Below, in pieces: positions 23 through 28,279 of a DNA stretch of 28,279 nt. How positions within the stretch are numbered: position 1 is the stretch's first letter; each line of letters opens with the position of its first letter. Where the stretch lies: IMG/VR virus record IMGVR_UViG_3300042465_005697, positions 1 through 28,279 of that record. The stretch is one strand, 5' to 3'. The position numbers and the translations under genes are program-made. The notes below the pieces were generated by a model that saw nothing but the letters and a program-made list of their open reading frames with translations, ran no database searches and was not told the origin of the DNA. The stretch comes from a virus (taxonomy: Duplodnaviria; Heunggongvirae; Uroviricota; Caudoviricetes).

Positions 23-53
23 TTTGTGTATATATAAAAAAGTATTATCTTTG
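23..53 (+). promoter_or_regulatory. Bacteroidota sigma-A type promoter
   Basis: TTTG (23-26), 19-nt spacer, TATCTTTG (46-53); matches TTTG-N19-21-TAnnTTTG. Confidence 0.8.
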
Positions 54-97
54 TAAGAGACAAGGAGGAAATACTAACTATATAAAAACATAAAACG

Positions 98-211
98 ATG
101 GAAACAATTCAAGTAACACAACAAGAGATCTGGGCGGCAACAAGATCTATGGTATACAAGAGTAAGAAATCTTACACTCGTAAGTCAAAACATAAGAACA
201 AGAAGTTCTAA
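98..211 (+). CDS. 37-aa basic peptide, ArfA-like C-terminal motif (not in ORF track)
   Basis: METIQVTQQEIWAATRSMVYKSKKSYTRKSKHKNKKF; lies between a consensus promoter and a terminator. Confidence 0.75.
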   Translation: METIQVTQQEIWAATRSMVYKSKKSYTRKSKHKNKKF

Positions 212-219
212 GATCGTAA

Positions 220-247
220 CCCCGAGAATATCACTCGGGGATTTTTT
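220..247 (+). terminator. intrinsic terminator
   Basis: CCCCGAG-aatatca-CTCGGGG then ATTTTTT. Confidence 0.85.
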
Positions 248-280
248 ATGTTTAAAAAAAAACATTATCACCATTTGATA

Positions 281-288
281 TATTTATA
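281..288 (+). promoter_or_regulatory. TATTTATA motif, putative phage late promoter
   Basis: 4 nt before ATG 293; motif recurs about 20 times before starts. Confidence 0.65.
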
Positions 289-292
289 GATA

Positions 293-952
293 ATGAAATC
301 GTTAATTAGAAGAGTATTACTAGAAGAGACCAAAGAACGTGATTATAATAAGATGCTTAAACTTGCGACAAACTATATTAAAAATGTGGGTCTAAATGGT
401 TTATGTAATGTTAAATTGGTTAAAAGTGATGTAGATATTATTGGTGTAATATTTACTCAGGGACATATTGGAGATACTAAATTACATAATTTGGAAGGGA
501 TATTGAAAAAAATATTTCACATTAGTTTTATATTAGTTGAGTATTGGAAAAGTAGTTGTTCGGAATTTGATGTATTACAGTTGGATGAAGGACGTATTGT
601 TGGGAAAATTCTAAAGGAGGAAATAATGGAAAGCGTTAGAGACAGATTGGTCTTAAAGTGGTTAAACAAGGAGTTTGGTGATTTAACTGAGGTGGTTAGG
701 GATGACAGAACATTTTATGTTGATAAGGACCGAAAACCGTTATTTTTCTATTACCAAGATTTAAAAAATGGGTATGTTTATGTAAATAACAAAAGAATTT
801 GGGTATTTTTTAAAGACATTTTTGGTCTGAAAAAATTGCAAACAAAGGAGATACTGAAGGTGTGGTTGGACCAGACCTATAATTTGAGGGGACTCACACC
901 GTATATAGATCGTTCACCATTTCCATTAAATTGGAACAGACCTATAATTTAA
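293..952 (+). CDS. hypothetical, class A tag, two domains with internal tag
   Basis: MKSLIRRVLLEE; internal KILKEEIMES precedes a KWLNKEFG...IFGL...W domain. Confidence 0.85.
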   Translation: MKSLIRRVLLEETKERDYNKMLKLATNYIKNVGLNGLCNVKLVKSDVDIIGVIFTQGHIGDTKLHNLEGILKKIFHISFILVEYWKSSCSEFDVLQLDEGRIVGKILKEEIMESVRDRLVLKWLNKEFGDLTEVVRDDRTFYVDKDRKPLFFYYQDLKNGYVYVNNKRIWVFFKDIFGLKKLQTKEILKVWLDQTYNLRGLTPYIDRSPFPLNWNRPII

Positions 953-964
953 AATAATATAAAA

Positions 965-1429
965 ATGAAGGAATTAATTAGACATATATTAAAGGAGGAA
1001 ACATCATTACATACCAGATTATTAAAAATGATTAATAATGGTGATTTTTTAACTGCAATTAGATCTGTTGGTGGTTATGGTAATTTAAGAAAGATAATGA
1101 AGGGAATTGACTATCTTTCTAAGGATGTTATGGTTGATACGATTAAAGGGGTTTTGGAAGGTAAAGGGTCTCTTGGTCTTTATGAATTGGGGATAACTCC
1201 AATAACCATAAGAACTATTGGTAACGAAGAACATCATATTGAAGCAATATCGGACAATGGTCTTATTATTGATGTTTATGTTGATTATGATTTGGATGAT
1301 GGTGATGAAACTATTGATAGTTATAGTTTGAGTTATGAGGATATTAAAAGAAATGATTTATTTGAGTTATTTGATGCTATAATTGAATATTATGAGGATT
1401 ATAGTGATGATGAAAACGATCATATGTGA
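965..1429 (+). CDS. hypothetical, class A tag plus VGG module
   Basis: MKELIRHILKEETS; AIRSVGGYGNLRKI; acidic C-terminus. Confidence 0.85.
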   Translation: MKELIRHILKEETSLHTRLLKMINNGDFLTAIRSVGGYGNLRKIMKGIDYLSKDVMVDTIKGVLEGKGSLGLYELGITPITIRTIGNEEHHIEAISDNGLIIDVYVDYDLDDGDETIDSYSLSYEDIKRNDLFELFDAIIEYYEDYSDDENDHM

Positions 1430-2591: not shown

Positions 2592-2599
2592 TATCTTTG
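2592..2599 (+). promoter_or_regulatory. Bacteroidota -7 box
   Basis: TATCTTTG in the intergenic gap before ATG 2623. Confidence 0.65.
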
Positions 2600-2622
2600 T
2601 ATATATAAAAAACTTAATTATT

Positions 2623-2856
2623 ATGAAACCAATGGGTAAAGATGAAATTGATTTCTATAGACTCAAACCATATTTAGATTTTGGTGAAACGGAAAAAGTT
2701 GAGGAATTAATACCTCCTTATGAAATTGTATATTACAAAAATCGTAAAGGTAATTTGGTTACCGCTAGAATTCTTATAAGAAGAAAGAACGGTGAAATTA
2801 TTGTAAGAAACATTAATGGTGTTGATGTATGTTTAACAGAAAAAGATTTAATATGA
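2623..2856 (+). CDS. hypothetical protein
   Basis: 77-aa ORF behind TAnnTTTG. Confidence 0.7.
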   Translation: MKPMGKDEIDFYRLKPYLDFGETEKVEELIPPYEIVYYKNRKGNLVTARILIRRKNGEIIVRNINGVDVCLTEKDLI

Positions 2857-3395
2857 AAGCAAAATTAATTAAAGAAAATGATTATCATTATTATCTAACG
2901 ATAGATGGTAAAATAATAGCAGACACTGAGGCACATCCATTAAGTAGTATTAATGTAAGTAAACTATCCAAACAAAATTGTGATGAAATATTCGGAGTAG
3001 TTGATTTTGAGAAGTTAGATAAAAAAATCAGAGGGTTAATGATGATTAGTGGAACATCTAATGGTACTATTGACCATCCAAACACAGATAAAATGATTTC
3101 TCTATTCAACAAAGCAATGGAGTTGAATAAAGGTAAGGTGTTTACTTATAATCAAATGGTTTCGGCAATTACTGAATCATCAATATCACATAGATTACCT
3201 TCTTTGATTATACAAGACTTACAACCAACAGAAATTGATGTTGAGATTGTTACTGAATCAAAACTAATAGGTCAATGTAACTGTCCTTGTCATACAAAAA
3301 AAGGAATACGTCATATTAAGGATTGTTGCAACCCTAAACGTGTTGAAACCCCAAAACTTGACTCAGAAGGACAATTAATACTTAAAAATATTTGA
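2853..3395 (+). CDS. hypothetical phage protein with Cys/His cluster
   Basis: Start moved to MKAKLIKE (ATGA overlap); CNCPCH...HIKDCC may bind metal. Confidence 0.8.
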   Translation: MKAKLIKENDYHYYLTIDGKIIADTEAHPLSSINVSKLSKQNCDEIFGVVDFEKLDKKIRGLMMISGTSNGTIDHPNTDKMISLFNKAMELNKGKVFTYNQMVSAITESSISHRLPSLIIQDLQPTEIDVEIVTESKLIGQCNCPCHTKKGIRHIKDCCNPKRVETPKLDSEGQLILKNI

Positions 3396-3396
3396 T

Positions 3397-3669
3397 ATGA
3401 AAAAATTAATGTTATTATGTGTGTTATTTTTATTCTCTTGTAATGATGGGGATAATGTGACAATTACTAACTCGGAGTATAAAAAATTAAGAGGAGACAC
3501 TTTAGTTCCAGAATATCCAAAGACAGTATATGTTCCAAGTGATGCTGGTGATAATACTCCTTATTTTGAGGTATGGTTAGGTAGTGATGGGCATGAGTAC
3601 CAACTACACGTAGAATCTCACGTAAGGAATCAATGGGTTCATTATGGTGGTTGTAAAAAATGTGATTAA
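3397..3669 (+). CDS. putative lipoprotein
   Basis: MKKLMLLCVLFLFSC lipobox-like signal; C-terminal HYGGCKKC. Confidence 0.7.
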   Translation: MKKLMLLCVLFLFSCNDGDNVTITNSEYKKLRGDTLVPEYPKTVYVPSDAGDNTPYFEVWLGSDGHEYQLHVESHVRNQWVHYGGCKKCD

Positions 3670-3685: not shown

Positions 3686-3693
3686 TATTTATA
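3686..3693 (+). promoter_or_regulatory. TATTTATA motif
   Basis: 7 nt before ATG 3701. Confidence 0.65.
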
Positions 3694-3700
3694 ATATATT

Positions 3701-4486
3701 ATGAAAGAACTGATTAAACAGATCATCAAGGAAGAAACTTCCACACAAACAAAATTAATGACTTTAATTAAAAAATTTGGTGTTGATTATGGCGCCAAGG
3801 CGGTTGGTGGGTATGATAGACTGACAAAAATAATGGAAGGAACCGATTTTTTGTATGTTAAACTTGATGTTAGTCCTGAATATATTCATCATTATCTTAG
3901 TGGTAATAGAAGATGGGGTAAAAAAACATTATATGAGGTGATATTAGAGGATCCGTGGGAAATACATTATTGGAGTGAATATGATGTTGAAAATTTAATG
4001 GACGATATTGATGAGGTAAATTTAAATAACATTAGGTCAATATTATCCGAAGATAATGATGAAGATTTAAGTGATGTATCTATTGATAATCTACTTGAAT
4101 ATGACACATTTGGTCATATAACTGATGCGATAAACAACGCAGCAAATACTGTTGATGGCGATGCGTATGGTGATTATTTATATAATCAATTAAAAAAGGC
4201 GTTTGAGGAATATGGTGGTGAAGTATACTCTATGGACGATGAGGGTGTTACGTTTAGCGTTAATTTATCAAAATATTTAAAGGATCTAACTGATGAAGAA
4301 TATGGATACTATCGTGATGTGTGTCAGGATAATTATGTATGTATGTTTAATGAAATGGTATATGATGATGGAGGAACAATTGATAAACCAGAACCTTACT
4401 TTGATGAAAATTGGTATAATTATGATCTTAATAAGACTCAATTTAACGAGATATTGTATGAAAACCTATCGGAACATTTAAATTAA
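3701..4486 (+). CDS. acidic hypothetical, class A tag plus VGG module
   Basis: MKELIKQIIKEETS; GAKAVGGYDRLTKI; D/E/Y-rich. Confidence 0.85.
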   Translation: MKELIKQIIKEETSTQTKLMTLIKKFGVDYGAKAVGGYDRLTKIMEGTDFLYVKLDVSPEYIHHYLSGNRRWGKKTLYEVILEDPWEIHYWSEYDVENLMDDIDEVNLNNIRSILSEDNDEDLSDVSIDNLLEYDTFGHITDAINNAANTVDGDAYGDYLYNQLKKAFEEYGGEVYSMDDEGVTFSVNLSKYLKDLTDEEYGYYRDVCQDNYVCMFNEMVYDDGGTIDKPEPYFDENWYNYDLNKTQFNEILYENLSEHLN

Positions 4487-4490
4487 TGAT

Positions 4491-5108
4491 ATGAAAGATA
4501 TAATTAGAAAGGCATTACACGAAGAGATCCAACGAAGATATAGGAGGGTTACACCTGAGTTATTGGATAGGTTAAGAAGATATTTATCAATCTTACTTAA
4601 AGGGGTTAAAATTACAACATTTGGACCCGAACACACTTATGGTGATATAAGAACTCAATTCTGTAAAAATAATCAATTTATTATGACGGTTATTTTTAAT
4701 GTTAAGGATCATGACGACGAAGAGGACTATCAGGATAATGCCTCGTTACATATAAGTAGAAGTATTTTATCACAGATTCTAAGTACTTTTAATATTAAAG
4801 AAAAATTTGCACTTGAGATTATTGCCGAATATGTAGAAGATAATTATGTTGAGGATATCTCAAAAGAATATGATCTTAACATTTATGATATTGATAGTTC
4901 CGATGTTAGCGATGTTAGTAAGTGTAGACAAAAAGTAATGGACAATCCTCCTGAGTTATCAAAAGAAGATATGATTGAGTGGTTGGTTATAAATCAAAAA
5001 ACCTTCCGTCGCCCTGAGATTGAACGATGGGATGATAAGGACCTTAGATACTGGTACCGTCGTGATTGGATCCGTAATAAAGCCAATGAATTAGGTTATG
5101 ATTATTAA
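4491..5108 (+). CDS. hypothetical, class A tag
   Basis: MKDIIRKALHEE; 205 aa; ends before a terminator. Confidence 0.85.
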   Translation: MKDIIRKALHEEIQRRYRRVTPELLDRLRRYLSILLKGVKITTFGPEHTYGDIRTQFCKNNQFIMTVIFNVKDHDDEEDYQDNASLHISRSILSQILSTFNIKEKFALEIIAEYVEDNYVEDISKEYDLNIYDIDSSDVSDVSKCRQKVMDNPPELSKEDMIEWLVINQKTFRRPEIERWDDKDLRYWYRRDWIRNKANELGYDY

Positions 5109-5158: not shown

Positions 5159-5175
5159 TTTGTGCTATATCTTTG
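5144..5175 (+). promoter_or_regulatory. Bacteroidota-type promoter overlapping terminator
   Basis: GTTG-N20-TATCTTTG. Confidence 0.7.
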
Positions 5176-5199
5176 TAGAAACAAATAAAGATAAGGATT

Positions 5200-5478
5200 A
5201 TGAAAGGGATAGAAACAAAAACAATGGTTAATATATTAAATAAAGCTAATACATTTAATCTCCAAAATGATAGTACATCTAGAGTATTTGGGGCTATTGA
5301 GGGTATACTTCTTTGTTACGGAAAATTGACACCCGGAACACCATGGAACTTTAAAGAGTTTGATGTTGAGGTTACAGGATGGTTTGGTAAAGTTACTATT
5401 GAGAAAAGAGAACAAACCTACAGAGAATTAATGGTTGAGTTGTTAACAGAATTGATTGTAGAACAAAAAGAAAAATAA
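5200..5478 (+). CDS. hypothetical protein
   Basis: 92-aa ORF after promoter. Confidence 0.75.
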   Translation: MKGIETKTMVNILNKANTFNLQNDSTSRVFGAIEGILLCYGKLTPGTPWNFKEFDVEVTGWFGKVTIEKREQTYRELMVELLTELIVEQKEK

Positions 5479-5483
5479 AAGAT

Positions 5484-5564
5484 ATGAGTTTAGATACGGT
5501 AATGTTAGGGGTTGGGATTATAGCTGGTTTGATATTGGGGTTAAGTATTAATAGAAAAAAATAA
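5484..5564 (+). CDS. 26-aa single-TM peptide (not in track)
   Basis: MSLDTVMLGVGIIAGLILGLSINRKK; fills the gap, start context like its neighbours. Confidence 0.6.
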   Translation: MSLDTVMLGVGIIAGLILGLSINRKK

Positions 5565-5569
5565 GAGAT

Positions 5570-5881
5570 ATGAAAACAATAGAAGAAAAGAACAAAATGA
5601 TCGCCGAGTTTATGGGATATAGATGGAAAAACGACGATAAAATGTGGATAAAAGGTGAATGGCCGTCATGTAGTTATTTGGATAAATATCTTGAATATAA
5701 TACCTCTTGGGATTGGTTGATGCCTGTGGTTAAAAAATGTAGAGATCTTGTGATAAATCCTAAAAATGGTGATGAGGTTTATATTTTATCCGATCTAGAA
5801 AATAAAGTTATGAGTTGTAATAATGTTATAGCATTTGATGGTCTTGTGGGATTTATTGAGTGGTATAATAATAAAAAATAA
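5570..5881 (+). CDS. hypothetical phage protein
   Basis: NKMIAEFMG...YNTSWDWLMPVVKKC. Confidence 0.8.
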   Translation: MKTIEEKNKMIAEFMGYRWKNDDKMWIKGEWPSCSYLDKYLEYNTSWDWLMPVVKKCRDLVINPKNGDEVYILSDLENKVMSCNNVIAFDGLVGFIEWYNNKK

Positions 5882-5886
5882 GAGAT

Positions 5887-6066
5887 ATGAAAAAGCACGT
5901 ACAAATAGTAAAAATGGATAAATCTATCCTTGAATATTTTAGAATGGTTATGGACTTTGATAACCAAAGTAAGGAATACAGAGAAGTTACCGAAAAGGAA
6001 TTTATTGGTGAATTAACTAGATCGTTAAATTGTGATTTAAATTACAAAGAAATTATGTGGGTTTAA
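5887..6066 (+). CDS. 59-aa hypothetical (not in track)
   Basis: MKKHVQIVKMDKS...EIMWV; same junction sequence as 5570. Confidence 0.65.
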   Translation: MKKHVQIVKMDKSILEYFRMVMDFDNQSKEYREVTEKEFIGELTRSLNCDLNYKEIMWV

Positions 6067-6098
6067 TTTGGTTTATCGGAAAAGATTTAATACTTTTG
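6067..6098 (+). promoter_or_regulatory. Bacteroidota-type promoter
   Basis: TTTG-N20-TACTTTTG, 4 nt before ATG 6103. Confidence 0.8.
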
Positions 6099-6102
6099 TG
6101 TT

Positions 6103-6759
6103 ATGGGAAACATACATTTAATACCAACGGACAATGAACAACATTCTATTGTTCAAAAGAACACAGGATTAGTTTTAATTCAAACACCACGTAAAGAGTA
6201 TAGTGGGACAAAATTAAACATCTACATTACTTCTGATGAAGAAATTAAAGAAGGAGATTGGTATTTATATTGCAATCAAATAAACAAAAGAATAAGGAAA
6301 AATCCTAAAGCTGAATATCCTTACCCTAATTATCAAAAAATCATTCTAACAACAGACCAAGACTTAATCAAAGATGGTGTACAAGAAATTGATAATGAGT
6401 TTTTAGAATGGTTTGTTAAGAATCCAAGTTGTGAGTTTGTTGAGGTTCAGAAATGGTTTGATGGTTTAGATTTTCTTGAATACAAAATCATCATTCCACA
6501 AGAAGAACCTAAACAAGAAACACTTAAAGAAGCGGCTATAAACAATTATCCTGAAGGTGATGTTTGGACTATAGAACAAGCTTTAATTAGAAGACTTGCT
6601 TTTATGAATGGTTCTAAATGGCAAGCTGAAAGAAGTTATAGTGAGGAAGAAGTTAAATCTTTTTTAGATAGATATAGAAGTCAATTTAGGATGGATAAGA
6701 ATGTTGATATTAAACAAAGTGATTTTATACAATGGTTTAACAAATTTAAAAAGAAATAA
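6103..6759 (+). CDS. hypothetical with C-terminal QAERSYSEEEV module
   Basis: 218 aa; C-terminal module paralogous to the next gene. Confidence 0.85.
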   Translation: MGNIHLIPTDNEQHSIVQKNTGLVLIQTPRKEYSGTKLNIYITSDEEIKEGDWYLYCNQINKRIRKNPKAEYPYPNYQKIILTTDQDLIKDGVQEIDNEFLEWFVKNPSCEFVEVQKWFDGLDFLEYKIIIPQEEPKQETLKEAAINNYPEGDVWTIEQALIRRLAFMNGSKWQAERSYSEEEVKSFLDRYRSQFRMDKNVDIKQSDFIQWFNKFKKK

Positions 6760-6760
6760 A

Positions 6761-7000
6761 ATGGAAAAAGAAACATTAGAAGAAGTGGCTACTAAAGTAT
6801 TAGATACTAAATACCCTTACCATCGACCAACAGACGCTGGTTATTGGAAAGATATGTTTATATCAGGTGTTAATTACCAAGCTGAAAGAAGTTATAGTGA
6901 GGAAGAAGTTTATAATATTTTAGTAGAACATACTATTGAATTATTCAAAGGGCAACCTTGTATGTTAGATGAATTTTTTGAAAAATTTAAAAAGAAATAA
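6761..7000 (+). CDS. hypothetical, stand-alone QAERSYSEEEV module
   Basis: Start moved to MEKETLEE just after upstream stop. Confidence 0.8.
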   Translation: MEKETLEEVATKVLDTKYPYHRPTDAGYWKDMFISGVNYQAERSYSEEEVYNILVEHTIELFKGQPCMLDEFFEKFKKK

Positions 7001-7011
7001 ACCATTACATT

Positions 7012-7320
7012 ATGGGTAAGTTATTAAAATATATTGACTCTTTATTTAAAGGGAATGGTCTAAATAATTGTGAGGTTATTTCATTTGGTGATGGATATAT
7101 TATTGAGATAAATATAGATTGTAGTAACAAATTGATCTTTGGTCCACTTAAATCTGTGTTAATGAGAAGACATACTAACATAGTTAATGAACTATTGTCA
7201 AGATATCCAAATATAGAATATAGAATTAGCTTTAACGATATTAATATCCCACATAGTAAATTACAAACAAAAATAGATAGGGGGGTTATATTAGAACCTC
7301 AATTTTCGTCATATGTTTAA
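7012..7320 (+). CDS. hypothetical, tandem paralog 1 of 3
   Basis: LLKYIDSLFKGNGLNNCEV. Confidence 0.75.
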   Translation: MGKLLKYIDSLFKGNGLNNCEVISFGDGYIIEINIDCSNKLIFGPLKSVLMRRHTNIVNELLSRYPNIEYRISFNDINIPHSKLQTKIDRGVILEPQFSSYV

Positions 7321-7585
7321 TTTAACGAATTATATTTATTCTCAATTAAAAGGTAGAGGGTTATCTTTTGAAATGTGGGATGTAACATATGAAGATGGGG
7401 TAAATATTATAACTTTGATTTTGGATTGTGAGTTTAATTATATTGTAACTTCGGATCATCTGCCGTACTACCAGAATGAGATGGTTTTAAGGTGTAAAAA
7501 TATATTTGGTGGAGTTTTACCTGAAGGATCATATGTGACTAAGGTTGTGGTAATTAATGAGAGAAAAAATAAAGAAACAATATAA
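7313..7585 (+). CDS. hypothetical, tandem paralog 2 of 3
   Basis: LTNYIYSQLKGRG...LPEGSY. Confidence 0.75.
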   Translation: MFNLTNYIYSQLKGRGLSFEMWDVTYEDGVNIITLILDCEFNYIVTSDHLPYYQNEMVLRCKNIFGGVLPEGSYVTKVVVINERKNKETI

Positions 7586-7809
7586 TGAAATATGGGTTAA
7601 CGAATTATATGAAATCAATCTTAATTGGGAATGAGTTTGATGAATGTGATGTTACATATGATAATGGGGTATATGTTATAACATTATATCTTGAGAATGA
7701 TGAATATTATAGTAATTTATTGGTCGATACTTTGAAAAGATATTGTGGGTGTTTATTTTCTTACTTACCTGAAGGATCATATAAAACTGATGTTAAATGT
7801 AGGGAATAA
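7585..7809 (+). CDS. hypothetical, tandem paralog 3 of 3
   Basis: LTNYMKSILIGNE...LPEGSY. Confidence 0.75.
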   Translation: MKYGLTNYMKSILIGNEFDECDVTYDNGVYVITLYLENDEYYSNLLVDTLKRYCGCLFSYLPEGSYKTDVKCRE

Positions 7810-7826
7810 AAAATAATACGAAAATT

Positions 7827-7858
7827 AATCCTCCGTTTGTAAAGATGGGGGATTTTTT
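7827..7858 (+). terminator. intrinsic terminator
   Basis: AATCCTCC...GGGGGATT then T run. Confidence 0.7.
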
Positions 7859-7867
7859 GTATATTTG
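7836..7867 (+). promoter_or_regulatory. Bacteroidota-type promoter, -33 box inside terminator loop
   Basis: TTTG-N20-TATATTTG, 4 nt before ATG 7872. Confidence 0.8.
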
Positions 7868-7871
7868 TTGT

Positions 7872-8264
7872 ATGGAAAAAGAATTTGTAGATTATACAGA
7901 AGCGTTAGAGTTGAAAGAATTAGGATTTGATGGTCCTTGTTGTGGTTACTATGACCATCTAATAAAGGAATTAGATGATATATCTTCAGAAGTGTGTGAA
8001 AGACTTTGTAAACACGATACCCATATTAAAGCACCAACTTATTCACAAGCATTTAGATTCTTTAGAGAGAAGTATAGATTAAAAGGGGGAATAGATACCG
8101 CTGATATGATTTGGTCTAAATGGAGTTTTAATATTGAATTAAAAGGTTCATCCTATATATTATATAGTGGGTTAACAGAAAAAATATATTTTAATTCCTA
8201 TGAAGAAGCAGAACTTGAATGTCTTAGAAAGTTAATATCAATAGTAAAAGAAAAACAGTTATGA
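7872..8264 (+). CDS. hypothetical phage protein
   Basis: Start moved to MEKEFVDYTEALELKELGFD (track start lies in the terminator). Confidence 0.85.
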   Translation: MEKEFVDYTEALELKELGFDGPCCGYYDHLIKELDDISSEVCERLCKHDTHIKAPTYSQAFRFFREKYRLKGGIDTADMIWSKWSFNIELKGSSYILYSGLTEKIYFNSYEEAELECLRKLISIVKEKQL

Positions 8265-8437
8265 AAGAATTAATGAAAATAATAAATGGTTGTTTAATTG
8301 TGTCAGGTTTTGCGATCGTGGTTGCGATTGCGATTATGGATAATTTTACAAAAGATATGTTAATACAGGCGTTGGTTGCTTGGGTATATATCCTAATAAA
8401 CTACATTGCGTTAGTGTTACCAAATAAAGAAGAATAA
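8261..8437 (+). CDS. 58-aa two-TM membrane protein (not in track)
   Basis: Two hydrophobic stretches; ATGA overlap with upstream gene. Confidence 0.7.
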   Translation: MKELMKIINGCLIVSGFAIVVAIAIMDNFTKDMLIQALVAWVYILINYIALVLPNKEE

Positions 8438-8439
8438 TT

Positions 8440-8586
8440 ATGGCAACAATTTATAAAGTGGAGGTTGTGTCGTATTGGTGTAGTTATACGAAAGAACAAC
8501 TTGAGAAGATATTACAAGATGCGGTCAATAAAATTGAAAAAGAAAAGGGAAACGAAATTAATATAACGGTAAAAGAAAGATTATGA
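8440..8586 (+). CDS. 48-aa hypothetical (not in track)
   Basis: MATIYKVEVVSYW...KERL; ATGA overlap with 8583. Confidence 0.65.
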   Translation: MATIYKVEVVSYWCSYTKEQLEKILQDAVNKIEKEKGNEINITVKERL

Positions 8587-19168: not shown

Positions 19169-19426
19169 TTATTTTATATACTTATAACCCTCTTTTAGTT
19201 GTTGGTTAAATTCTCCTGAGATCAATCTCATCATATCGGTTTTAATAAATCCTATCTGTGGGTTTTTATGTCTGAATATTAACGTAGATCTATGTATTAC
19301 CCACGATTCATACTGTCCAAAATTTCTCGGAGGTGGAGATCCGTCCTCATTTACAAACACATATATAATTGAATCCTTCACATAACCCTCCAACTCTGGT
19401 AATCTTCTTTTAAGGTCTTTATTCAT
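19169..19426 (-). CDS. RR-family-like protein, untagged, inverted
   Basis: Start moved to MNKDLKRRLPELE; TATTTAC upstream on minus strand. Confidence 0.6.
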   Translation of the reverse strand: MNKDLKRRLPELEGYVKDSIIYVFVNEDGSPPPRNFGQYESWVIHRSTLIFRHKNPQIGFIKTDMMRLISGEFNQQLKEGYKYIK

Positions 19427-19456
19427 ATTTGTAAATATAGTTATATTTATTGATAT

Positions 19457-19759
19457 ATGAAAATCATTATTACTGAAACCCAAGATAAACAAATTCGTTC
19501 ATTTATACGACGAATTGGTATTGCAGATGAAATTATTTCTAAATTGAACCCTAAAGACATTTGTAAATATTGGGACAATACCGAAAATGATGCGTTACAT
19601 TTTTCTGACGATATAATTGTGGGTATAGTTTGGGAAATTAATGATACCCTTAATATTAATTCGTACCACAATAAGGATCTATATAAATTTTTTGAGGATA
19701 TTGGTTATTACGACAAACTAATAAAATTTTTTCATAAATCTTTTGAATCATGCGAATAA
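19457..19759 (+). CDS. RR family, class C tag
   Basis: TATTTATT 5 nt upstream; MKIIITETQ...FIRR...DICKY. Confidence 0.85.
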   Translation: MKIIITETQDKQIRSFIRRIGIADEIISKLNPKDICKYWDNTENDALHFSDDIIVGIVWEINDTLNINSYHNKDLYKFFEDIGYYDKLIKFFHKSFESCE

Positions 19760-20073
19760 TCATAACCGAAACCCAAAAAGAATTATTGGATTATAATAGG
19801 TTATCTAACTGCGTTAAACGAAGATTGGAGCTTAATGTTCTTGATGAAACGGTTATATCTATTATGGACGAACTACCTGTTTCTAGATTCTCATTATCAA
19901 ATTTTGTTGATACGATAATAGATTACCTATATGAAAAACTTGAAACAATAAGTAATTTTGAAATATGTTGGGGAGATGAATCATATTACCAATTTTCAAC
20001 ATCAATTAAACGATTTTTAACCTCAAGATATGAGGACACAATAACAAAATATTATAAAACCTATTATGTTTGA
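19750..20073 (+). CDS. RR family, class C tag
   Basis: MRIIITETQ...VKRR. Confidence 0.8.
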   Translation: MRIIITETQKELLDYNRLSNCVKRRLELNVLDETVISIMDELPVSRFSLSNFVDTIIDYLYEKLETISNFEICWGDESYYQFSTSIKRFLTSRYEDTITKYYKTYYV

Positions 20074-20380
20074 TAGTCAAAATTTCTTCATTAGAAGATT
20101 ACCCAGTATTATTAATTATGTTGAATTGGACATTGAAGAGGTTGAATCCGATGAAAATGGACATAATATGTGTAGTTATTACACTATTGATAGTTTTGTT
20201 TATTCTTTTGTTCAGACAACGATGGATAAATTTGCTGACGATAACGTCCAATTCTTTAATAATCGTGATGGTATGGTGAGATTTACAGATGAAGAAAAGG
20301 AATTCTTTGTTAACATCATAAATAAAAACTACGGAAACTACCTTAGAAATTTATATGTTAGGTTGTGTGGGCATAAATAA
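20066..20380 (+). CDS. RR family, truncated tag
   Basis: MFDSQNFFIRR...MCSYY...YGNYLRNLYVRLC; paralog of 18777. Confidence 0.8.
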   Translation: MFDSQNFFIRRLPSIINYVELDIEEVESDENGHNMCSYYTIDSFVYSFVQTTMDKFADDNVQFFNNRDGMVRFTDEEKEFFVNIINKNYGNYLRNLYVRLCGHK

Positions 20381-20403
20381 ATTATATTGTATATTTATCA
20401 AAT

Positions 20404-20892
20404 ATGTCTTACCCAATTAAATCTATTGAAAAAATCTTTAACACTCTTGGTCACCATAAGATTAAGGATTTATATGGTCTTGATTTAACTTTTAATATTG
20501 TTGATATTGAGGTACTTTCCAATATAATAAATATTAAAGTTAATTTTATTGGAGATTTACCCTATATATTTAGGAATCTAAGTGTTGGTGATGATGAGTG
20601 GAGTATAACTAGGTACCATGACCGTCAACATATTACAAAGATATTGGGAGATATTTTAAAATATGTTGGTATAAACAATGGTTTTGTTAGTATGGAATAT
20701 GAACCTAACACCAACGAATGTTCTAAAACGGGATATTTAACTGGTGTCGGTTGGACTATATGTCTTGATAATGGAATGTTGGATCCATTCATGCCCGATA
20801 GACGTAAATTATTAAGTAATGCAATCTCAGGTAGATGGTGGGATAGTTTATCAACAAAAGATAAAAAGATGTTAAAATCTAATTTTGGATAA
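20404..20892 (+). CDS. hypothetical protein
   Basis: TATTTATC 4 nt upstream; 162 aa. Confidence 0.8.
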   Translation: MSYPIKSIEKIFNTLGHHKIKDLYGLDLTFNIVDIEVLSNIINIKVNFIGDLPYIFRNLSVGDDEWSITRYHDRQHITKILGDILKYVGINNGFVSMEYEPNTNECSKTGYLTGVGWTICLDNGMLDPFMPDRRKLLSNAISGRWWDSLSTKDKKMLKSNFG

Positions 20893-21503
20893 TGAAAATA
20901 ATAATAACTGAATCTCAAAAAGATAAATTATTTAACATCTTTAATAAGTTGTTAAATGATCTTATGGATAACATTAAGGTTGATTCTGAAGATTGGGGAT
21001 TGGGTGAGATGGACGAATTGGATGAGGTTAATTCTGTCGATCATATTGGCGTTGATAGAGTTGTTACCTTTGATGGTATTAAGGTTTATGTTAATCTATA
21101 TGTTAACAAGGAAAGGGATAGTTGGGATAATGTTTGGTCGGAGATTCAATATAGAGTTAATCAACATATACCCCACGCAAAGATTGTTTTAAACGATGTT
21201 ATTGTTGAACAGGAGATGGGATCTTTAAATGAATCTAAAGATAGAAACTTTATTAATCGCAGGATTCATTTAATTGATGACGAATTTAATAGGTCAATTG
21301 ATTTATTTAATCCGAGAGACTTTTTTGATTTTGATGACTACCAATTTTCATTGGTTAATTCCTCAATACATCGGGCAATGGCAGATAAAAAATCTTTTGG
21401 TATTACAAAGAAAGATAATCAATGGATTCCCACTTATGAACTTTTCCGTGATTATTTAAGGGATAAATATATTGATGAAATGAAAAAAAGATTTTATTTG
21501 TAA
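20892..21503 (+). CDS. two-domain protein, class C tag, internal LNES then RR domain
   Basis: MKIIITESQ...GSLNESKDRNFINRR. Confidence 0.85.
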   Translation: MKIIITESQKDKLFNIFNKLLNDLMDNIKVDSEDWGLGEMDELDEVNSVDHIGVDRVVTFDGIKVYVNLYVNKERDSWDNVWSEIQYRVNQHIPHAKIVLNDVIVEQEMGSLNESKDRNFINRRIHLIDDEFNRSIDLFNPRDFFDFDDYQFSLVNSSIHRAMADKKSFGITKKDNQWIPTYELFRDYLRDKYIDEMKKRFYL

Positions 21504-21519
21504 ATAATGATTTAAGAAA

Positions 21520-21864
21520 ATGAAAATAATAATAACTGAATCTCAAAATAAACTTCTATGGTTACGTAGAAGATTAGGTGTTCCTGAAATAATGGATACC
21601 TTAAAGGATATTGTTATTGAGGGTTTTGATTATACCGATCCTTGTGATTATGAAACTTATTATAGTTATGAAACTAACGTGGCAAATGATTCTGCAATAA
21701 CATTTATTAATTCATATATTGAACTTTATGGTGAAGAACATTTTGATTCAACTGAACTTGAGGGTTTTGTTCGTGAATTAGTTATTAGTAAGTACCGTCA
21801 CTTAATTAAAGGAGAATGGAGGAATCGTAATTGTAATGATGATGAATATGAATCGGATTATTAA
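21520..21864 (+). CDS. RR/PCDY family, class C tag
   Basis: MKIIITESQNKLLWLRRR...DPCDY. Confidence 0.85.
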   Translation: MKIIITESQNKLLWLRRRLGVPEIMDTLKDIVIEGFDYTDPCDYETYYSYETNVANDSAITFINSYIELYGEEHFDSTELEGFVRELVISKYRHLIKGEWRNRNCNDDEYESDY

Positions 21865-21877
21865 CTATTTATAAAAT

Positions 21878-22249
21878 ATGAAAATTATTATCACCGAAAA
21901 TAAGATTGAATTGGCAATTATTAAGTATCTAAACACTCATTATAATGTTGATGAGATTCATTCTAACCCATTTCACGATGATTATGGTGATCCTACAGAT
22001 GATGCAATAGAATATTATAATGGAGACTATTTTGAGGATGACTACGGACCTTTCACATTATATAAGGAGTCTTATTGGGTAAATGATGATGATCCTAAAA
22101 AGGAATTATCACCATTATTAATAATTGAGGACGAGAGTTTTTATCAGAGTCTTAACTCTATGTTTGGACCATATTGGGAACCCGTATTTAAGAAGTGGTT
22201 TGAAGATAATTTTGGTGAAAAAATAAAAACTATTGAACTCACCCGTTAA
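21878..22249 (+). CDS. acidic hypothetical, class C tag
   Basis: TATTTATA 4 nt upstream; MKIIITENK...FKKWFEDNFG. Confidence 0.85.
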   Translation: MKIIITENKIELAIIKYLNTHYNVDEIHSNPFHDDYGDPTDDAIEYYNGDYFEDDYGPFTLYKESYWVNDDDPKKELSPLLIIEDESFYQSLNSMFGPYWEPVFKKWFEDNFGEKIKTIELTR

Positions 22250-22256
22250 AATTGTT

Positions 22257-22451
22257 ATGGAAATCATTATAACCGAACAACAATATAGATCACTAAATGA
22301 GATGATTAACCTTGATATTAAGGTTGGTGATACATTGTTGGGTGGTAAATTTAAAAACAAGAAGGTTGTTGTTAAAAAAATCGGAAAAAATGATAAGGGG
22401 GATATTACAATTAACGGAAAACCGTTATTAAGGTTTAGAATAATTTCTTAA
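22257..22451 (+). CDS. small basic beta-rich domain, class C tag
   Basis: Start moved to MEIIITEQQ; LDIKVGDTLLGGKFKNKKVVVK. Confidence 0.75.
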   Translation: MEIIITEQQYRSLNEMINLDIKVGDTLLGGKFKNKKVVVKKIGKNDKGDITINGKPLLRFRIIS

Positions 22452-22477: not shown

Positions 22478-22485
22478 TATCTTTG
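22478..22485 (+). promoter_or_regulatory. Bacteroidota -7 box
   Basis: TATCTTTG 7 nt before ATG 22493. Confidence 0.7.
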
Positions 22486-22492
22486 GAATGTT

Positions 22493-22807
22493 ATGGAAAA
22501 ACACTTCAAAATAATCTTATCTAAATTGTTATCGTATTCGTCTGTTGGGAAAGTTCGCACCATTACCGTACCTCATATTGCTTTTTTTAATAAAAATGAT
22601 GAAGTAGTTATGGTTTATAATATAAACACCCAAACAATGGTCTTAAAGACTGATTATATTATCACATTAAGACATATTTTAGGGTTGGAAAAGATAACAC
22701 CACATATTAACAACATCCAAAATCATTTAATTGTAACCTTTCCAACACTAATTATTAATACGTGGTTCTCAGCAATCTATTTAAATTCTAACACTTCCAT
22801 TCGTTGA
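22493..22807 (+). CDS. hypothetical protein
   Basis: 104 aa; weakly similar to the C-terminal domain of 293. Confidence 0.7.
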   Translation: MEKHFKIILSKLLSYSSVGKVRTITVPHIAFFNKNDEVVMVYNINTQTMVLKTDYIITLRHILGLEKITPHINNIQNHLIVTFPTLIINTWFSAIYLNSNTSIR

Positions 22808-23613: not shown

Positions 23614-23946
23614 ATGAAGAAAAAACTTTATAATTTAATGGATCGGATGTTTAACTTTATACCTGAAGAGGGCAAAGATAACGGTAGATATGATATTTTT
23701 TTTAATGCAGATAAAGAACCATTAATAATTATAGACACTCAAGATAACGATATATCTTTTTCTAACCCCCATATTACCACCGTAATGAGAATTATGGGTA
23801 TTAATGATGCTAAGGAATTATTTGGAAAAAGTGAAGGTGTAGATTTAAATGATTATATACTTGAATGGGCAAAGCAAAGGTTTAAAGGTTATTACGAAAT
23901 AAACGATTGGTATATGTCTGGTGACTTATTGGATTATTTAAATTAA
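23614..23946 (+). CDS. hypothetical protein
   Basis: TATTTATA 4 nt upstream; ILEWAKQRF. Confidence 0.8.
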   Translation: MKKKLYNLMDRMFNFIPEEGKDNGRYDIFFNADKEPLIIIDTQDNDISFSNPHITTVMRIMGINDAKELFGKSEGVDLNDYILEWAKQRFKGYYEINDWYMSGDLLDYLN

Positions 23947-23949: not shown

Positions 23950-24237
23950 ATGAAAATTGTTATAACAGAAAATCAACGTCACTTGTTGAGAAGACATAAG
24001 GAAATTGAAGATGAGATATATAGTCAATTACTGGGTTATGGATATCTTCCCCATAATCTTGAGAGTTTTATGGGTGAGATAACTTGGGATGTGGGATCAA
24101 CTCTTGCCGGTAAAATGATCCCTAACGTGGTTGGGGGTGACTATGTAACCTTAAGAAATCAAATCATCCACTACATTAGAAATAATTTTTATGATGAATT
24201 AAAAGAGTATTGGGAAAGTCGCCAACCAAGATATTAA
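23950..24237 (+). CDS. RR family, class C tag
   Basis: MKIVITENQRHLLRR. Confidence 0.85.
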   Translation: MKIVITENQRHLLRRHKEIEDEIYSQLLGYGYLPHNLESFMGEITWDVGSTLAGKMIPNVVGGDYVTLRNQIIHYIRNNFYDELKEYWESRQPRY

Positions 24238-24764: not shown

Positions 24765-25484
24765 ATGAAAAAAAAGATAATTGAGAAAATATTAACTTTA
24801 GTCCAACGAAAATATCCGTTTGTTAAAAATTTAAAGAGTTTAAAGACTAAATACAATTATGATACTTGGAGTGTACTTGTTGATAAAGACAAATACTTGG
24901 ATTATTTTAACGCTACTGAGGATATGTTGGATACTGATTTGGTTGTTGGGTATGTTGATAGATTTCTTCAAATGAAATATTGGGATAGTGATTTACAGAA
25001 TCTTGGAGCTGAGATTGATAAATATATTGGTGGTGTTATAAAAATAATTATTGGTTCATACCCCAAAATAAAAGATCTTGAATTTGAGAGTATCGGATCA
25101 TATTATATGGATAAAAAACAAAAACAAATGGAACATAATTTAAGTAAAATAATAAAGAGGGTCATTAAGGAATCCGAATTAACTCATTACGCAAGAAGGA
25201 TCCAAGAATTGAGGGATTTAATAAACAATCAAGTTGAGATGCAAGATCCTTGTAATTTTGAGGATGGTGATGAGTATGCTGATTTTTGTATCTCAACAGG
25301 TATGGGTTGGTTTTTTGGGTTTGATCCGTGGAGTGATACTGATTATAGTGATGACGAAGAAGTGGTTAGACCAACTAATCCTGATATTAGTGTTGACGAT
25401 TATAATAAAATAAATACTGAGATGACCAATGAGTTCTATGATGATCTTGTTGCGTTGTGGGATGAATATTCTGAAGAATGTTAA
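24765..25484 (+). CDS. two-domain fusion: KYPFV domain, internal tag, RR/PCNF domain
   Basis: TATTTATA at 24748; internal MEHNLSKIIKRVIKES then YARR...DPCNF. Confidence 0.8.
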   Translation: MKKKIIEKILTLVQRKYPFVKNLKSLKTKYNYDTWSVLVDKDKYLDYFNATEDMLDTDLVVGYVDRFLQMKYWDSDLQNLGAEIDKYIGGVIKIIIGSYPKIKDLEFESIGSYYMDKKQKQMEHNLSKIIKRVIKESELTHYARRIQELRDLINNQVEMQDPCNFEDGDEYADFCISTGMGWFFGFDPWSDTDYSDDEEVVRPTNPDISVDDYNKINTEMTNEFYDDLVALWDEYSEEC

Positions 25485-25486: not shown

Positions 25487-25831
25487 ATGAAAAAAATTAT
25501 AAAATTAACTGAGTCAGATCTAGTTCGTATTGTAAAACGAGTTATATCGGAGGCAAATGTTGGATACGTTAAAGGAACTCGTGGGATTGAATCCGAAGTG
25601 TTTTCAAATGTATTAAAGAAATACATTGAGATTGTACCAGAAATGAAAGTCACAATTGAACCAATAATAAATTCAAACCCCCTTGAGGTTAAGTGGAAAG
25701 ATAGACAAATAATTAAGGATGCCTTTGGTAAAGTTGAGGAATGGTGTCACAATAACAACGATGATGTGTGTGGTGAAGTACTTGATTATACCGCAGGTGA
25801 TAGATCAACAATTGTAAATTTAATACCATAA
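25487..25831 (+). CDS. hypothetical, class B tag
   Basis: Start moved to MKKIIKLTESDLVRIVKRVISEA. Confidence 0.85.
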   Translation: MKKIIKLTESDLVRIVKRVISEANVGYVKGTRGIESEVFSNVLKKYIEIVPEMKVTIEPIINSNPLEVKWKDRQIIKDAFGKVEEWCHNNNDDVCGEVLDYTAGDRSTIVNLIP

Positions 25832-25896: not shown

Positions 25897-26490
25897 ATGG
25901 AAGAAAAAAAATTAAAAGAAGAACTTTTTAGAGAAATAAAAAGAAGAGGTCTAATGGAACAGGAAGATGATTCCGAAAATGAAACTGAAGAAGAAGGTGA
26001 TGGCAAATTGTATAAATTAAACAGTAAGACCATTAAAATCTTAACAGATAGAATTAAAGATGAGTACACCGCACACTATTTTTATAGAGCAGCAACGAAT
26101 TGGTGTAGAGATAAGAACTACAAGAAAGCTGCAGAATTTTTTAATAATGAGGCGGATGATGAATTAACTCACGCAAAGAAACTTCAAGAATATATGACAG
26201 ATTTTAATATCATCCCTGTCATCCCACAAGCACCGATTGATCATAAATTTGATGGTTTAATTGAAATTATTTATGGGGCATATAAAATGGAATTGGCATT
26301 GATGAAAGCATATAATGAAAATTCAAAAGATTTGTTCTCGGATGATATGACAACATTTGACTTCTTAGGTGAATTTAGAGAGATCCAAAAGGGTGCGGTT
26401 GTTGAATATAACGACTTAATTAACGGAAGTGAATTGGTCGACACCAAAGACAAATTCCAAGTATTATACTTTGAACAAACTTATTTCTGA
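25897..26490 (+). CDS. ferritin-like protein with N-terminal extension
   Basis: DEYTAHYFY, FFNNEADDELTHAKKLQEY, AYKME, TTFDFLGEFREIQ match non-heme ferritin (FtnA-like) helices. Confidence 0.85.
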   Translation: MEEKKLKEELFREIKRRGLMEQEDDSENETEEEGDGKLYKLNSKTIKILTDRIKDEYTAHYFYRAATNWCRDKNYKKAAEFFNNEADDELTHAKKLQEYMTDFNIIPVIPQAPIDHKFDGLIEIIYGAYKMELALMKAYNENSKDLFSDDMTTFDFLGEFREIQKGAVVEYNDLINGSELVDTKDKFQVLYFEQTYF

Positions 26491-26510
26491 TAAGAATAAA
26501 ACCTACTACG

Positions 26511-26539
26511 AACCCCATCCTCAGCAGGTGGGGTTTTTT
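26511..26539 (+). terminator. intrinsic terminator
   Basis: ACCCCATC-ctcagca-GGTGGGGT then T run. Confidence 0.8.
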
Positions 26540-26694
26540 AATGTTTTGTTAATACTCACATAACATACTTTCAACATTTTATGCCTATATATTGTATATG
26601 GTAATATTTTCACTAATAAGCGTGTCATTCATTTTAAGAACAATATTAAAAGATCGTAAGGATTATTTTAAATTCATAAATAAATAAATTCATT

Positions 26695-26710
26695 TATCTT
26701 TGTATTTATG
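26695..26710 (+). promoter_or_regulatory. adjacent TAnnTTTG and TATTTAT motifs
   Basis: TATCTTTG-TATTTATG-aat-ATG. Confidence 0.6.
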
Positions 26711-26713
26711 AAT

Positions 26714-27163
26714 ATGGAGATCACCGAAAAACAAGAAAAGGGTATTGAATTATTAATAAAAGGTTTAAGACGAAAGTTTCCTTTTATTCTTGGTGTGGAA
26801 ATTAGAGAAATAACGGAATTCCATATTTGGGTGGTTATTATCGTTGAATTTACTAGGTTTTTAAAATTCTATAATGTACCACCAAGTCGTTTCCATTTAA
26901 AATATGGGTTAGAAACTAGTAAAGAATATTTTGAGGGTTATAAAAACCCGGGATATTTAATGGGGTTAGTTGATGAAGACCATAAAGATGAATTTGGTAA
27001 CGAATATAACAATAAAATGGAGAATTTTTTGAGTGGGCTATATAACTCATTACCGGAAGAATATACACTACAATATAATGGTAGAGCCAATTTGATACAA
27101 ATATGGGGTTACCAAATAGAAGTAGATGTGGATGGAGAATTCCCCACCCACACCGATTCTTAA
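26714..27163 (+). CDS. KFPFI-domain hypothetical, short class C-like tag
   Basis: MEITEKQEKG...RRKFPFI; start could also be 26708. Confidence 0.75.
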   Translation: MEITEKQEKGIELLIKGLRRKFPFILGVEIREITEFHIWVVIIVEFTRFLKFYNVPPSRFHLKYGLETSKEYFEGYKNPGYLMGLVDEDHKDEFGNEYNNKMENFLSGLYNSLPEEYTLQYNGRANLIQIWGYQIEVDVDGEFPTHTDS

Positions 27164-27585
27164 CCAATACTTATAATTTCCAAATCAAAGATTAGTTTTT
27201 TTCCTGATAACGGATGGTTAGCATCAAGGATAACTACCTCATCCTTAACTTCAAGAACTTTCGCATTAACAGGACCTTGTGGTGTCATTGCTTGTAACAT
27301 TTCGCCAGCTTGAACTCCTTCAGGAACTTGTGTTCTTGGAACTTCATTTACCATTTGATCATTTGGGTGACCATATGCCTCTTCAGGACTAATTTCTACA
27401 GTCTTCTTTTCACCGATTTCCATATCAATTAAACCATTTTCAAATCCTTTAATTAAAGATCCTTCACCCAATTTAACGGTGATAGGTTCTCTACCTTCAT
27501 CCAACGATGAGTCAAAAACTGAACCATCTTCCAATTTTCCTGTGTAATGTACTGTTACAACATCACCATTTTGTACTTTTCCCAT
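27160..27585 (-). CDS. slyD: FKBP-type peptidyl-prolyl isomerase, short SlyD/FkpB type
   Basis: VTVHYTGKLEDGSVFDSS, LIKGFENGL, PEEAYG, LDANHPLSGKKLIFDLEI; IF domain present, no His-rich tail. Confidence 0.9.
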   Translation of the reverse strand: MGKVQNGDVVTVHYTGKLEDGSVFDSSLDEGREPITVKLGEGSLIKGFENGLIDMEIGEKKTVEISPEEAYGHPNDQMVNEVPRTQVPEGVQAGEMLQAMTPQGPVNAKVLEVKDEVVILDANHPLSGKKLIFDLEIISIG

Positions 27586-27656
27586 ATTTTATTTGTTTTT
27601 TATAAGTGTAGAAATATTTTTTTGTAATGTAAAATGTTTTTGTAGTATTTATTAAT

Positions 27657-28244
27657 ATGAATTCACCAAGTCGTAATAAAATTAAACAAATCTTAAGGGA
27701 AACATTGTTTTATACTCCATCGGAAAAAATGAAGAACTCAATGTTTAAGTTATGGGATAAACAAAAATCTAAAGGATTAAAGCCCGAGGTGAATACCGCA
27801 TTGGCAAAATCTATGGGATTACACAGTACCTCAATGTTGAATGATTGGGTTGTTGAGTGGTATGGTGGTGTTGACGTGGTGTTTGGTATGATTAAAGAAG
27901 ATTTAGACAACAAAACTTTTACTACAGATGAATTAGGTAGTATATATCACGTTAATATTGGTAATTATGATTTTACATTTGAATTAACTAACCTTAAAAT
28001 GCGTAACCAACGGTCTCGTGATCCAGACATTAGTGTTGATATGGAAATACTTGATGGTGGGGTTGAGTTAATGACCGATGGTGAATATTATGATCTGACA
28101 AGAATTAACGAACCTGGATATATTTATGATGATTTATTGTGGGAGATTAAAATGGAAATAAAAGGGATTATTGAAGAATTTGCGTGGAAAGTTATTGGTC
28201 AATATAGATTCAATGCCGATTCGATTAGTGTTGAACTTATTTAA
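27657..28244 (+). CDS. hypothetical, class A tag
   Basis: TATTTATT 3 nt upstream; NKIKQILRET. Confidence 0.85.
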   Translation: MNSPSRNKIKQILRETLFYTPSEKMKNSMFKLWDKQKSKGLKPEVNTALAKSMGLHSTSMLNDWVVEWYGGVDVVFGMIKEDLDNKTFTTDELGSIYHVNIGNYDFTFELTNLKMRNQRSRDPDISVDMEILDGGVELMTDGEYYDLTRINEPGYIYDDLLWEIKMEIKGIIEEFAWKVIGQYRFNADSISVELI

Positions 28245-28252
28245 TAAAGATA

Positions 28253-28279
28253 TATTTATAATAAAAAAGGAATGAAATT
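28253..28279 (+). other. TATTTATA motif and start of a truncated ORF
   Basis: ATG at 28272 runs off the window. Confidence 0.55.

Follow-up and report, generated by a model that had tools for sequence, protein, structure and literature searches.

IMG/VR virus record IMGVR_UViG_3300042465_005697 is a 149,690-bp sequence (G+C 31.5%) from an uncultured T4-like phage. Many of its small genes begin with one of a few short peptides, which we refer to as tags, and many of its genes are preceded by the heptamer TATTTAT. Here we analyze the first 28,279 bases of the record (the window) together with the remainder of the record and with related viral contigs. We found that the tagged genes lie in transcription units headed by TATTTAT and are absent from units headed by promoters of the host type.

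Four families of N-terminal tags

The record, whose completeness is ~51% (CheckV), encodes a Gp23 major capsid protein (MCP; 91944–93821), a T4-type portal (86073–87911), a Peptidase_S77 (gp21-type) prohead protease (89409–90137) and a large terminase (TerL; 83996–85759). Endonuclease VII, an endolysin and a family B DNA polymerase are also encoded. We called 202 genes with a home-made codon-usage caller and corrected some of the starts. A megablast search of GenBank phages with the first 12 kb of the window gave zero matches.

To define the tag families, we trained hidden Markov models (HMMs) on the copies present in this genome and scanned the N-terminal zone of each of the 202 called genes with them, at a strict cut-off of E<0.1. 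Tag A (MKELIRHILKEE) is carried by 13 genes, tag B (MKIIITESQ) by 14, tag C (MKKIIKLTESDLTRIVKRVIKE) by 8, and tag D (...SEKxRILEMH, its positions fixed within the first 20 residues) by 4. The count for tag A leaves aside a further match that lies internally, at residue 31, in the gene at record 79056, and the gene at 67179, a borderline B match (E 0.097), was counted as relaxed only. There are thus 39 strict tags in the record, 26 of them inside the window, and six weaker look-alikes besides. Length-matched internal control segments gave no match to the tag HMMs.

The tags end in ...ILKE, ...IITE, ...KLTE/VIKE and ...RILE, so that [ILV]-x-E is common to all four families; this is the form of the T4 gp21 cleavage site (PMC9026906). 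Beyond the tag, the protein bodies (residues 26 onwards) are mutually unrelated by BLASTP, and the 39 tags therefore count as 39 families. Ten tagged proteins were compared with Pfam, and no family was found for them. Every synonymous codon occurs inside the tags: in tag B, for instance, Ile is written ATT, ATC or ATA, and Thr is written ACC, ACG, ACA or ACT. This variation suggests that selection acts on the tag peptide.

The TATTTAT box

TATTTAT is the top enriched 7-mer in the 30 nt before gene starts, where it precedes 54 of the 202 genes against 3.0 expected; 69 genes have a copy within 45 nt upstream. The window holds 53 copies, compared with 37 in shuffles. The information profile of the 69 sites consists of an invariant heptamer with a weak A on each side (A directly follows the box in 61% of sites) and a peak of A 4–5 nt downstream. 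No conserved element is present from −45 to −3 upstream of the box at these sites, and hence there is no −35 partner. The distance from the box to the ATG is bimodal, at 4–6 nt and 13–16 nt, in the record and in its relatives alike.

The genes found in TATTTAT units include TerL, the S77 protease, a scaffold-like gene, endonuclease VII, the endolysin and a homing endonuclease; the portal gene is coupled behind TerL, and the MCP gene is coupled behind the scaffold-like gene. The DNA polymerase, an FtsH-like protease, PhoH, a HAD phosphatase and an M20 peptidase lie outside these units. Judged by the functions of the genes that it heads, TATTTAT would be a late promoter. We also considered an upstream terminator as a general part of the box and rejected it, as a hairpin terminator stands directly before TATTTAT at only 7 of the 69 sites.

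Host-type promoters

The promoter consensus of Bacteroides and Flavobacterium is TTG at −33 and TAnnTTTG at −7. The record contains 41 composites of the form TTG-N15-21-TAnnTTTG, ~22 of which fall in the 12% of the DNA that is intergenic, and most of the intergenic composites directly precede genes or RNA genes. With −33 TTG, −7 TAnnTTTG and a spacing of ~19 bp, these composites have the form of a Bacteroidota sigma-A promoter, and since the early promoters take this form, they point to a host in the Bacteroidota phylum. TAnnTTTG by itself is at chance level (126 and 130 copies, where 134 are expected). Only when joined to the −33 TTG, or when intergenic, does it mark a promoter, and the first-pass annotation of the window, which had used it as the sole marker of the early class, has to be amended in this respect. 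A naive early class, comprising any TAnnTTTG within 70 nt of a start, put the tagged genes 20892, 21520 and 22257 in early units; we rejected it because the lone motif occurs at chance frequency and these copies lie inside upstream coding sequence.

Among the host-type heads, 7 of 19 have TAnnTTTG exactly 4 nt before the ATG, a placement also seen in 95 genes of related contigs. Boxes of this leaderless geometry include those at 6091–6105, 7860–7874 and 11540–11554 (minus strand) in the window and that at 52079–52093 in the record. A box this close to the start codon implies that many early mRNAs should be leaderless too. The shared geometry of the two kinds of box argues that TATTTAT is a −7/−10 kind of promoter element and that many messages of both classes are probably leaderless. 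Most of the early-unit proteins have no assigned family in Pfam or PHROGs.

Tags segregate with promoter class

Of the 26 tagged genes in the window, 15 follow TATTTAT directly, at 4–14 nt, and the other 11 are coupled within box-headed runs, a coupled gene being one that overlaps its neighbor or follows it at a gap of <=16 nt. The 39 tagged genes of the whole record belong without exception to TATTTAT units, 24 of them directly behind the box and 15 coupled, as the first-pass annotation had described for the window. Its complementary statement, that the units it listed as headed by TAnnTTTG have no tags, also holds for each of those window units, and in the record none of the 28 genes in host-type units is tagged, nor is any of the 55 genes without an assigned promoter. 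The genome-wide contingency test that it had proposed gives Fisher values of 8e-5 for late versus early genes and 5e-11 for late genes versus the rest, and the association thus persists across the record. Counted by unit, tags are present in 29 of 69 TATTTAT units, in 0 of 19 host-type units and in 0 of the remaining 31. The test gives 6.6e-5 when counted as 39 unrelated body families, and the segregation is unchanged at distance limits of 25 or 45 nt and at coupling gaps of 20, 60 or 120 nt. From 1 to 16.5 kb, where the classes alternate, three of four late units have tags as opposed to none of seven early units (p 0.024). The alternation of early and late blocks every 1–4 kb, which had been described for the window as a whole, is confined to this part; from 16.6 kb onwards nearly all units are of the TATTTAT class.

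The segregation rule in related viral contigs

Degenerate DNA patterns for the B and C tags were searched in IMG/VR and matched >119 and >100 stretches, respectively, far above chance. The set of relatives comprises 218 loci (1.79 Mb), in which genes and tags were called as in the record and duplicates were removed. Tagged genes in this set are in TATTTAT units in 432 cases and in host-type units in 5, compared with 836 and 280 for untagged genes (odds ratio 29, p 1e-37). The box directly precedes 53% of the tagged genes but 26% of the untagged genes. A composite host promoter directly precedes none of ~470 deduplicated tagged genes, as against 165 untagged genes. Likewise, 3 of 490 tagged genes, about the number expected by chance, have TAnnTTTG 3–5 nt ahead of the ATG, compared with 104 of 1900 untagged genes. 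Four loci (L013, L047, L052 and L056) that have composites upstream of B tags were considered as exceptions and set aside, these being mostly chance matches within coding sequence or units that also have TATTTAT.

In the IMG/VR loci (L010–L231), B and C tags occur on well over 200 viral contigs, the longest of 322 kb. Tagged genes in the relatives are often in tandem, and many come right after a hairpin terminator and TATTTAT.

Organization of the window

All units described here are on the plus strand unless stated otherwise. The first late unit (281–2534) lies just downstream of a terminator (220–240) and begins with TATTTAT at 281–287. Its four A-tagged genes (293–952, 965–1429, 1429–2211 and 2208–2534) share this box, which is the first gene's own. 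A host-type unit (2592–3669) comes next, with TATCTTTG at 2592–2599, a TTG upstream of it, and the untagged genes 2623–2856, 2829–3395 and 3397–3669. The second late unit (3686–5108) has TATTTAT at 3686–3692 and two A-tagged genes (3701–4486 and 4491–5108). An untagged host-type run then extends from 5168 to 9222, with −7 boxes that end at 5175 (gene 5200), 6098 (gene 6103) and 7867 (gene 7872), the latter two lying 4 nt before the ATG; terminators are found at 7827–7854 and 9251–9275. The run also contains tandem paralogues, 6103–6759 and 6701–7000, which share AERSYSEEEV and an FKKK end, and three related genes (7012, 7313 and 7585) of 74–102 aa.

The third late unit (9291–10900; TATTTAT at 9291–9297) has three A-tagged genes (9302–9799, 9792–10139 and 10136–10555) and an untagged gene (10580–10900). 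On the minus strand, a host-type unit (11054–11554) consists of an untagged HAD-family gene with a composite promoter that ends 4 nt before the ATG. Next to it are ~900 bases (11600–12520) without a convincing open reading frame (ORF), flanked by one hairpin in both orientations (CCCCTACAGAGGGG at 12314–12327 and 12496–12509); the region may encode a noncoding RNA or serve as a terminator in both directions. A further host-type −7 box, TATCTTTG at 14218–14225, without a −33 TTG, precedes the untagged paralogues 14233–14583 and 14567–14923 (unit 14218–14923).

A dense late array occupies 16581–22451, with TATTTAT at 16581, 17004, 17328, 17726, 18038, 18764, 19444, 20392 and 21866. The box-headed tagged genes of the array start at 16593 (A), 17016 (B), 17340 (A), 17747 (C), 18050 (B), 18777 (B), 19457 (B) and 21878 (B), and the coupled tagged genes, all of family B, start at 18416, 19750, 20892, 21520 and 22257; genes 20066 and 20404 are untagged. 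The array is followed by a host-type −7 box (unit 22478–22807), TATCTTTG at 22478–22485, 7 nt before an untagged ORF (22493–22807). In two late units the box heads an untagged gene and the tag is on the coupled second gene: TATTTAT at 23602 heads 23614–23946, followed by B-tagged 23950–24237, and TATTTAT at 24748 heads 24765–25484, followed by C-tagged 25487–25831, where the unit ends. Two late genes close the window, namely A-tagged 27657–28244 behind TATTTAT at 27646–27652 (27646–28244) and a B-tagged gene that starts at 28272 behind TATTTAT at 28253–28259 and runs past the window end at 28279.

The second half of the C tag (NLSKIIKRVIKESE) recurs at 25128–25190, around residue 122 of the untagged late gene 24765–25484; this internal copy could represent either a second tagged module that has become fused to the gene or a protease site within the protein. 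Genes 18777–19103 and 20066–20380 have homologous bodies, one tagged and the other not; gene 20066 has lost the MKIIITE part and retains SQNFFIRRL. The body of A-tagged 293–952 resembles an untagged 559-aa late protein at record 72191–73870. A ferritin-like gene (25897–26490, plus strand), 36 nt behind TATTTAT, and a gene for an FKBP-type prolyl isomerase on the opposite strand (27160–27585, minus) are unusual accessory genes amid the tagged ORFans.

A candidate sigma-like protein

The minus-strand gene at record 105768–106514 (locus L005:5768–6514) encodes a 248-aa protein that is a candidate late sigma factor, a lead and not a result. A search of the record with T4 gp55 found nothing directly. 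T4 gp55 does weakly match a 245-aa protein in two near-complete relatives, and the record protein is a 69%-identical homologue of it. Compared with gp55 itself, the record protein gives a BLASTP value of 3e-4 over 38 aa, a weak match to gp55 region 2, and the best PDB sequence match of the family is gp55, at a profile E of 0.42. A structure model of the protein, with a predicted local distance difference test (pLDDT) score of 69, returned sigma factors as all of its 50 best Foldseek matches, at E 0.018 or worse. Metagenomes contain at least 8000 members of its family, which lacks a Pfam domain, and PHROGs has no family for the protein or its relatives. The gene sits in a non-TATTTAT operon headed by PhoH. 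At 248 aa versus 185 aa, the protein is longer than gp55 and has a second helical domain besides. With phmmer, the PDB yielded weak matches of the MarR type only.

Discussion

We consider it probable that this phage has two promoter classes and that its tags are wired to the late, TATTTAT class, marking cargo that is docked, cleaved and packaged. In this mechanism, the host-type promoters (TTG at −33, TAnnTTTG at −7) would be read by unmodified host RNA polymerase and would drive small untagged genes. The late promoter would be (a)TATTTAT(a), without a −35 element and ending 4–6 or 13–16 nt before the ATG, and it would probably be read by the phage sigma-like protein (record 105768–106514, minus). 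Each tagged gene would have either its own late box or a translationally coupled downstream position. Because all tagged genes are in TATTTAT units and none is behind a host-type promoter, it is probable that the tagged proteins are produced along with the capsid, at the time of the scaffold, the MCP and the gp21-type prohead protease. The tag would then dock the protein into the prohead core, the protease would remove the tag, and the cargo would be packaged. Late timing, sigma recognition, docking, cleavage and packaging are each predicted. The earlier proposal that the tag functions late, in assembly, fits the promoter and gene-function evidence, its timing component being read from gene function alone.

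We tentatively extend this reading to a plug-in module, composed of an optional terminator, TATTTAT, an often leaderless ATG and one of four interchangeable tags, which may load dozens of unrelated ORFans into the capsid, with the cargo locked late, across a very large clade of T4-like Bacteroidota phages, uncultured and found in fresh and marine waters. This would be the reverse of T4, in which early promoters drive the internal-protein genes. Such a late lock could exist because, until proheads have formed, the cargo would harm the producing cell or be of no use to it.

Several points weigh against the assignment of tags to a late class. B-tagged gene 20892 has the motif TAATTTTG (20880–20894, plus strand) ending 4 nt ahead of its ATG. 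Such a spacing is that of leaderless host-type promoters, but the motif has no −33 TTG and lies inside the end of gene 20404–20892; gene 20892 is a possible exception to the segregation. In addition, the early unit 2623–3669 meets the TATTTAT box at 3686 with no terminator between 3669 and 3701, and the tagged genes of 3701–5108 could therefore be transcribed early too; terminators do separate the units at 211–293 and 9222–9302. In the relatives, the five tagged genes of the host-type class are one B-tagged run in L026 that has no TATTTAT at its head. The head of this run follows a terminator, without a recognizable promoter, and the case remains ambiguous. The evidence for a sigma factor is weak (best Foldseek E 0.018, E 0.42 with the gp55 profile, pLDDT 69), the record is only ~51% complete, and TATTTAT also heads the ferritin-like gene and the homing endonuclease. 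Finally, the internal-protein genes of T4 are driven by early promoters, as described below.

TATTTAT might be a phage promoter of a middle or constitutive class, in which case its segregation with the tags would be uninformative on assembly timing. The box does head many ORFans besides the ferritin-like gene and the homing endonuclease, and transcription of an early unit can continue into a TATTTAT unit on the same strand. Nevertheless, the identifiable particle and lysis genes are all in TATTTAT units, the identifiable replication and metabolism genes are all outside them, and one AT-rich box without a −35 element is the architecture of T4 late promoters (PMC2988020). We therefore regard a middle or constitutive box as unlikely.

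It is also improbable, in our judgment, that promoter and tag are simply one mobile DNA cassette (terminator, TATTTAT, ATG and tag), such that their association would reflect a history of duplication and recombination and not a functional need. Some features do have the look of a cassette. Genes 17016 and 18050, and likewise 16593 and 17340, are almost the same at the DNA level from the box as far as the first codons of the tag, although only these pairs look like recent copies. A hairpin with a T-run stands just before the box at 5 of 24 directly headed tagged genes, compared with 2 of 45 untagged genes, and the hairpin-box-tag layout is common in the relatives too. Promoter-bearing repeats of the kind known as PeSL cassettes can shuffle ORFans (PMC2839356). 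Yet 15 of the 39 tags have no box of their own, 40 of the 69 TATTTAT units have no tag, the tag codons use all synonymous alternatives, the spacer from box to ATG varies, and the tagged bodies are unrelated. The segregation rule also holds over 470 deduplicated tagged genes elsewhere. Shuffling may spread cassettes, but it leaves the absence of tags from host-type units unexplained. The caveat raised in the first-pass annotation, that promoter and tag could be co-inherited as a single block, is on these grounds, and with the 218 related loci, largely excluded.

That the tag is selected mainly as RNA, as an A/U-rich start that aids translation of leaderless late mRNAs rather than as a protein-targeting signal, is highly improbable: tag codons are rich in A/U, spacings of <=8 nt are more frequent for tagged than for untagged genes (14/24 versus 13/45, p 0.02) and most box-bearing B tags in the relatives are 4–6 nt from the box, but the tag amino acids are conserved while third positions vary freely, the 15 of 39 tags on coupled internal genes cannot be leaderless, C and D tags mostly have leaders of 12–16 nt, 13 TATTTAT genes of leaderless geometry carry no tag, and a protease-type [ILV]-x-E ends all four families.

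The preferred reading, of tags that serve assembly and are tied to a late promoter class, can be compared with the wiring of T4. The tags resemble the capsid-targeting sequences (CTSs) of the T4 internal proteins IPI, IPII and IPIII in being short conserved N-terminal peptides with a gp21-type end on unrelated small proteins, and the genes of both are clustered in variable regions (PMC3012670, PMC9026906, PMC12373910). A peptide end of [LI]-x-E and an encoded gp21-family protease, the hallmarks of a CTS, are both present here; cleavage itself is a prediction. The promoters differ. We inspected the T4 sequence (AF158101) around ipII (65416–65718), ipIII (65834–66415) and ipI (73591–73878) and found no TATAAATA late box within 120 nt of these genes. 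Each is instead directly preceded by an early-type promoter that has a stem-loop between its −35 and −10 elements, in agreement with a published description (PMC2839356), and the T4 internal proteins are abundantly synthesized both early and late (PMC6071114). Capsid targeting thus does not of itself demand late-only expression. The T4 arrangement, in which each ip gene has its own early-type promoter, is not seen in our record, where 0 of 39 tagged genes are directly behind a host-type composite promoter.

The sole T4 likeness to the present wiring is alt (123454–125502), which encodes a packaged ADP-ribosyltransferase whose N-terminal propeptide is removed by gp21 (PMC9026906). In T4, a hairpin terminator is followed by a late box, TATAAATA, and then by the ATG of alt, and the cassettes at 281, 9291 and 18038 have this layout. 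alt is the only T4 gene of this kind, and its leader measures 27 nt and carries a Shine-Dalgarno site, whereas the present record has at least 39 genes and four tag families, and TATTTAT is often only 4–6 nt from the ATG.

The box itself is like a T4 late promoter in being one AT-rich element of 7–8 bp, without a −35 partner, before particle and lysis genes (PMC2988020). T4 late promoters have the sequence TATAAATA and are read by gp55 with gp33 and the gp45 clamp. TATTTAT(A) is the reverse complement of the T4 box and does not match the T4 consensus, and its distance from the ATG implies a start site 4–5 nt downstream, as at Bacteroidota −7 promoters and unlike T4. The PeSL cassettes of phages RB49 and phi1 are similar in that they are repeated promoter-bearing intergenic elements, some with a terminator hairpin, that insulate single ORFans in hyperplastic regions (PMC2839356). 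They differ in being early sigma70-like promoters of ~100 bp for which recombination has been demonstrated, whereas the present element is a late box of 7 bp, with a clear hairpin at only 7 of 69 sites. The tying of cargo-type genes to the late class alone appears to be a variant on two features known from T4, late promoters and capsid-targeting propeptides.

The segregation rule provides independent genomic support for the late reading of TATTTAT and for a role of the tags at the assembly stage. The compact, insulated and often leaderless late cassettes are possible parts for engineering Bacteroidota phages. If the tags are capsid-loading signals, the combination of a tag and a TATTTAT unit would list the probable injected cargo, by sequence alone, of a huge uncultured group of phages, and this group would wire its cargo genes differently from T4.

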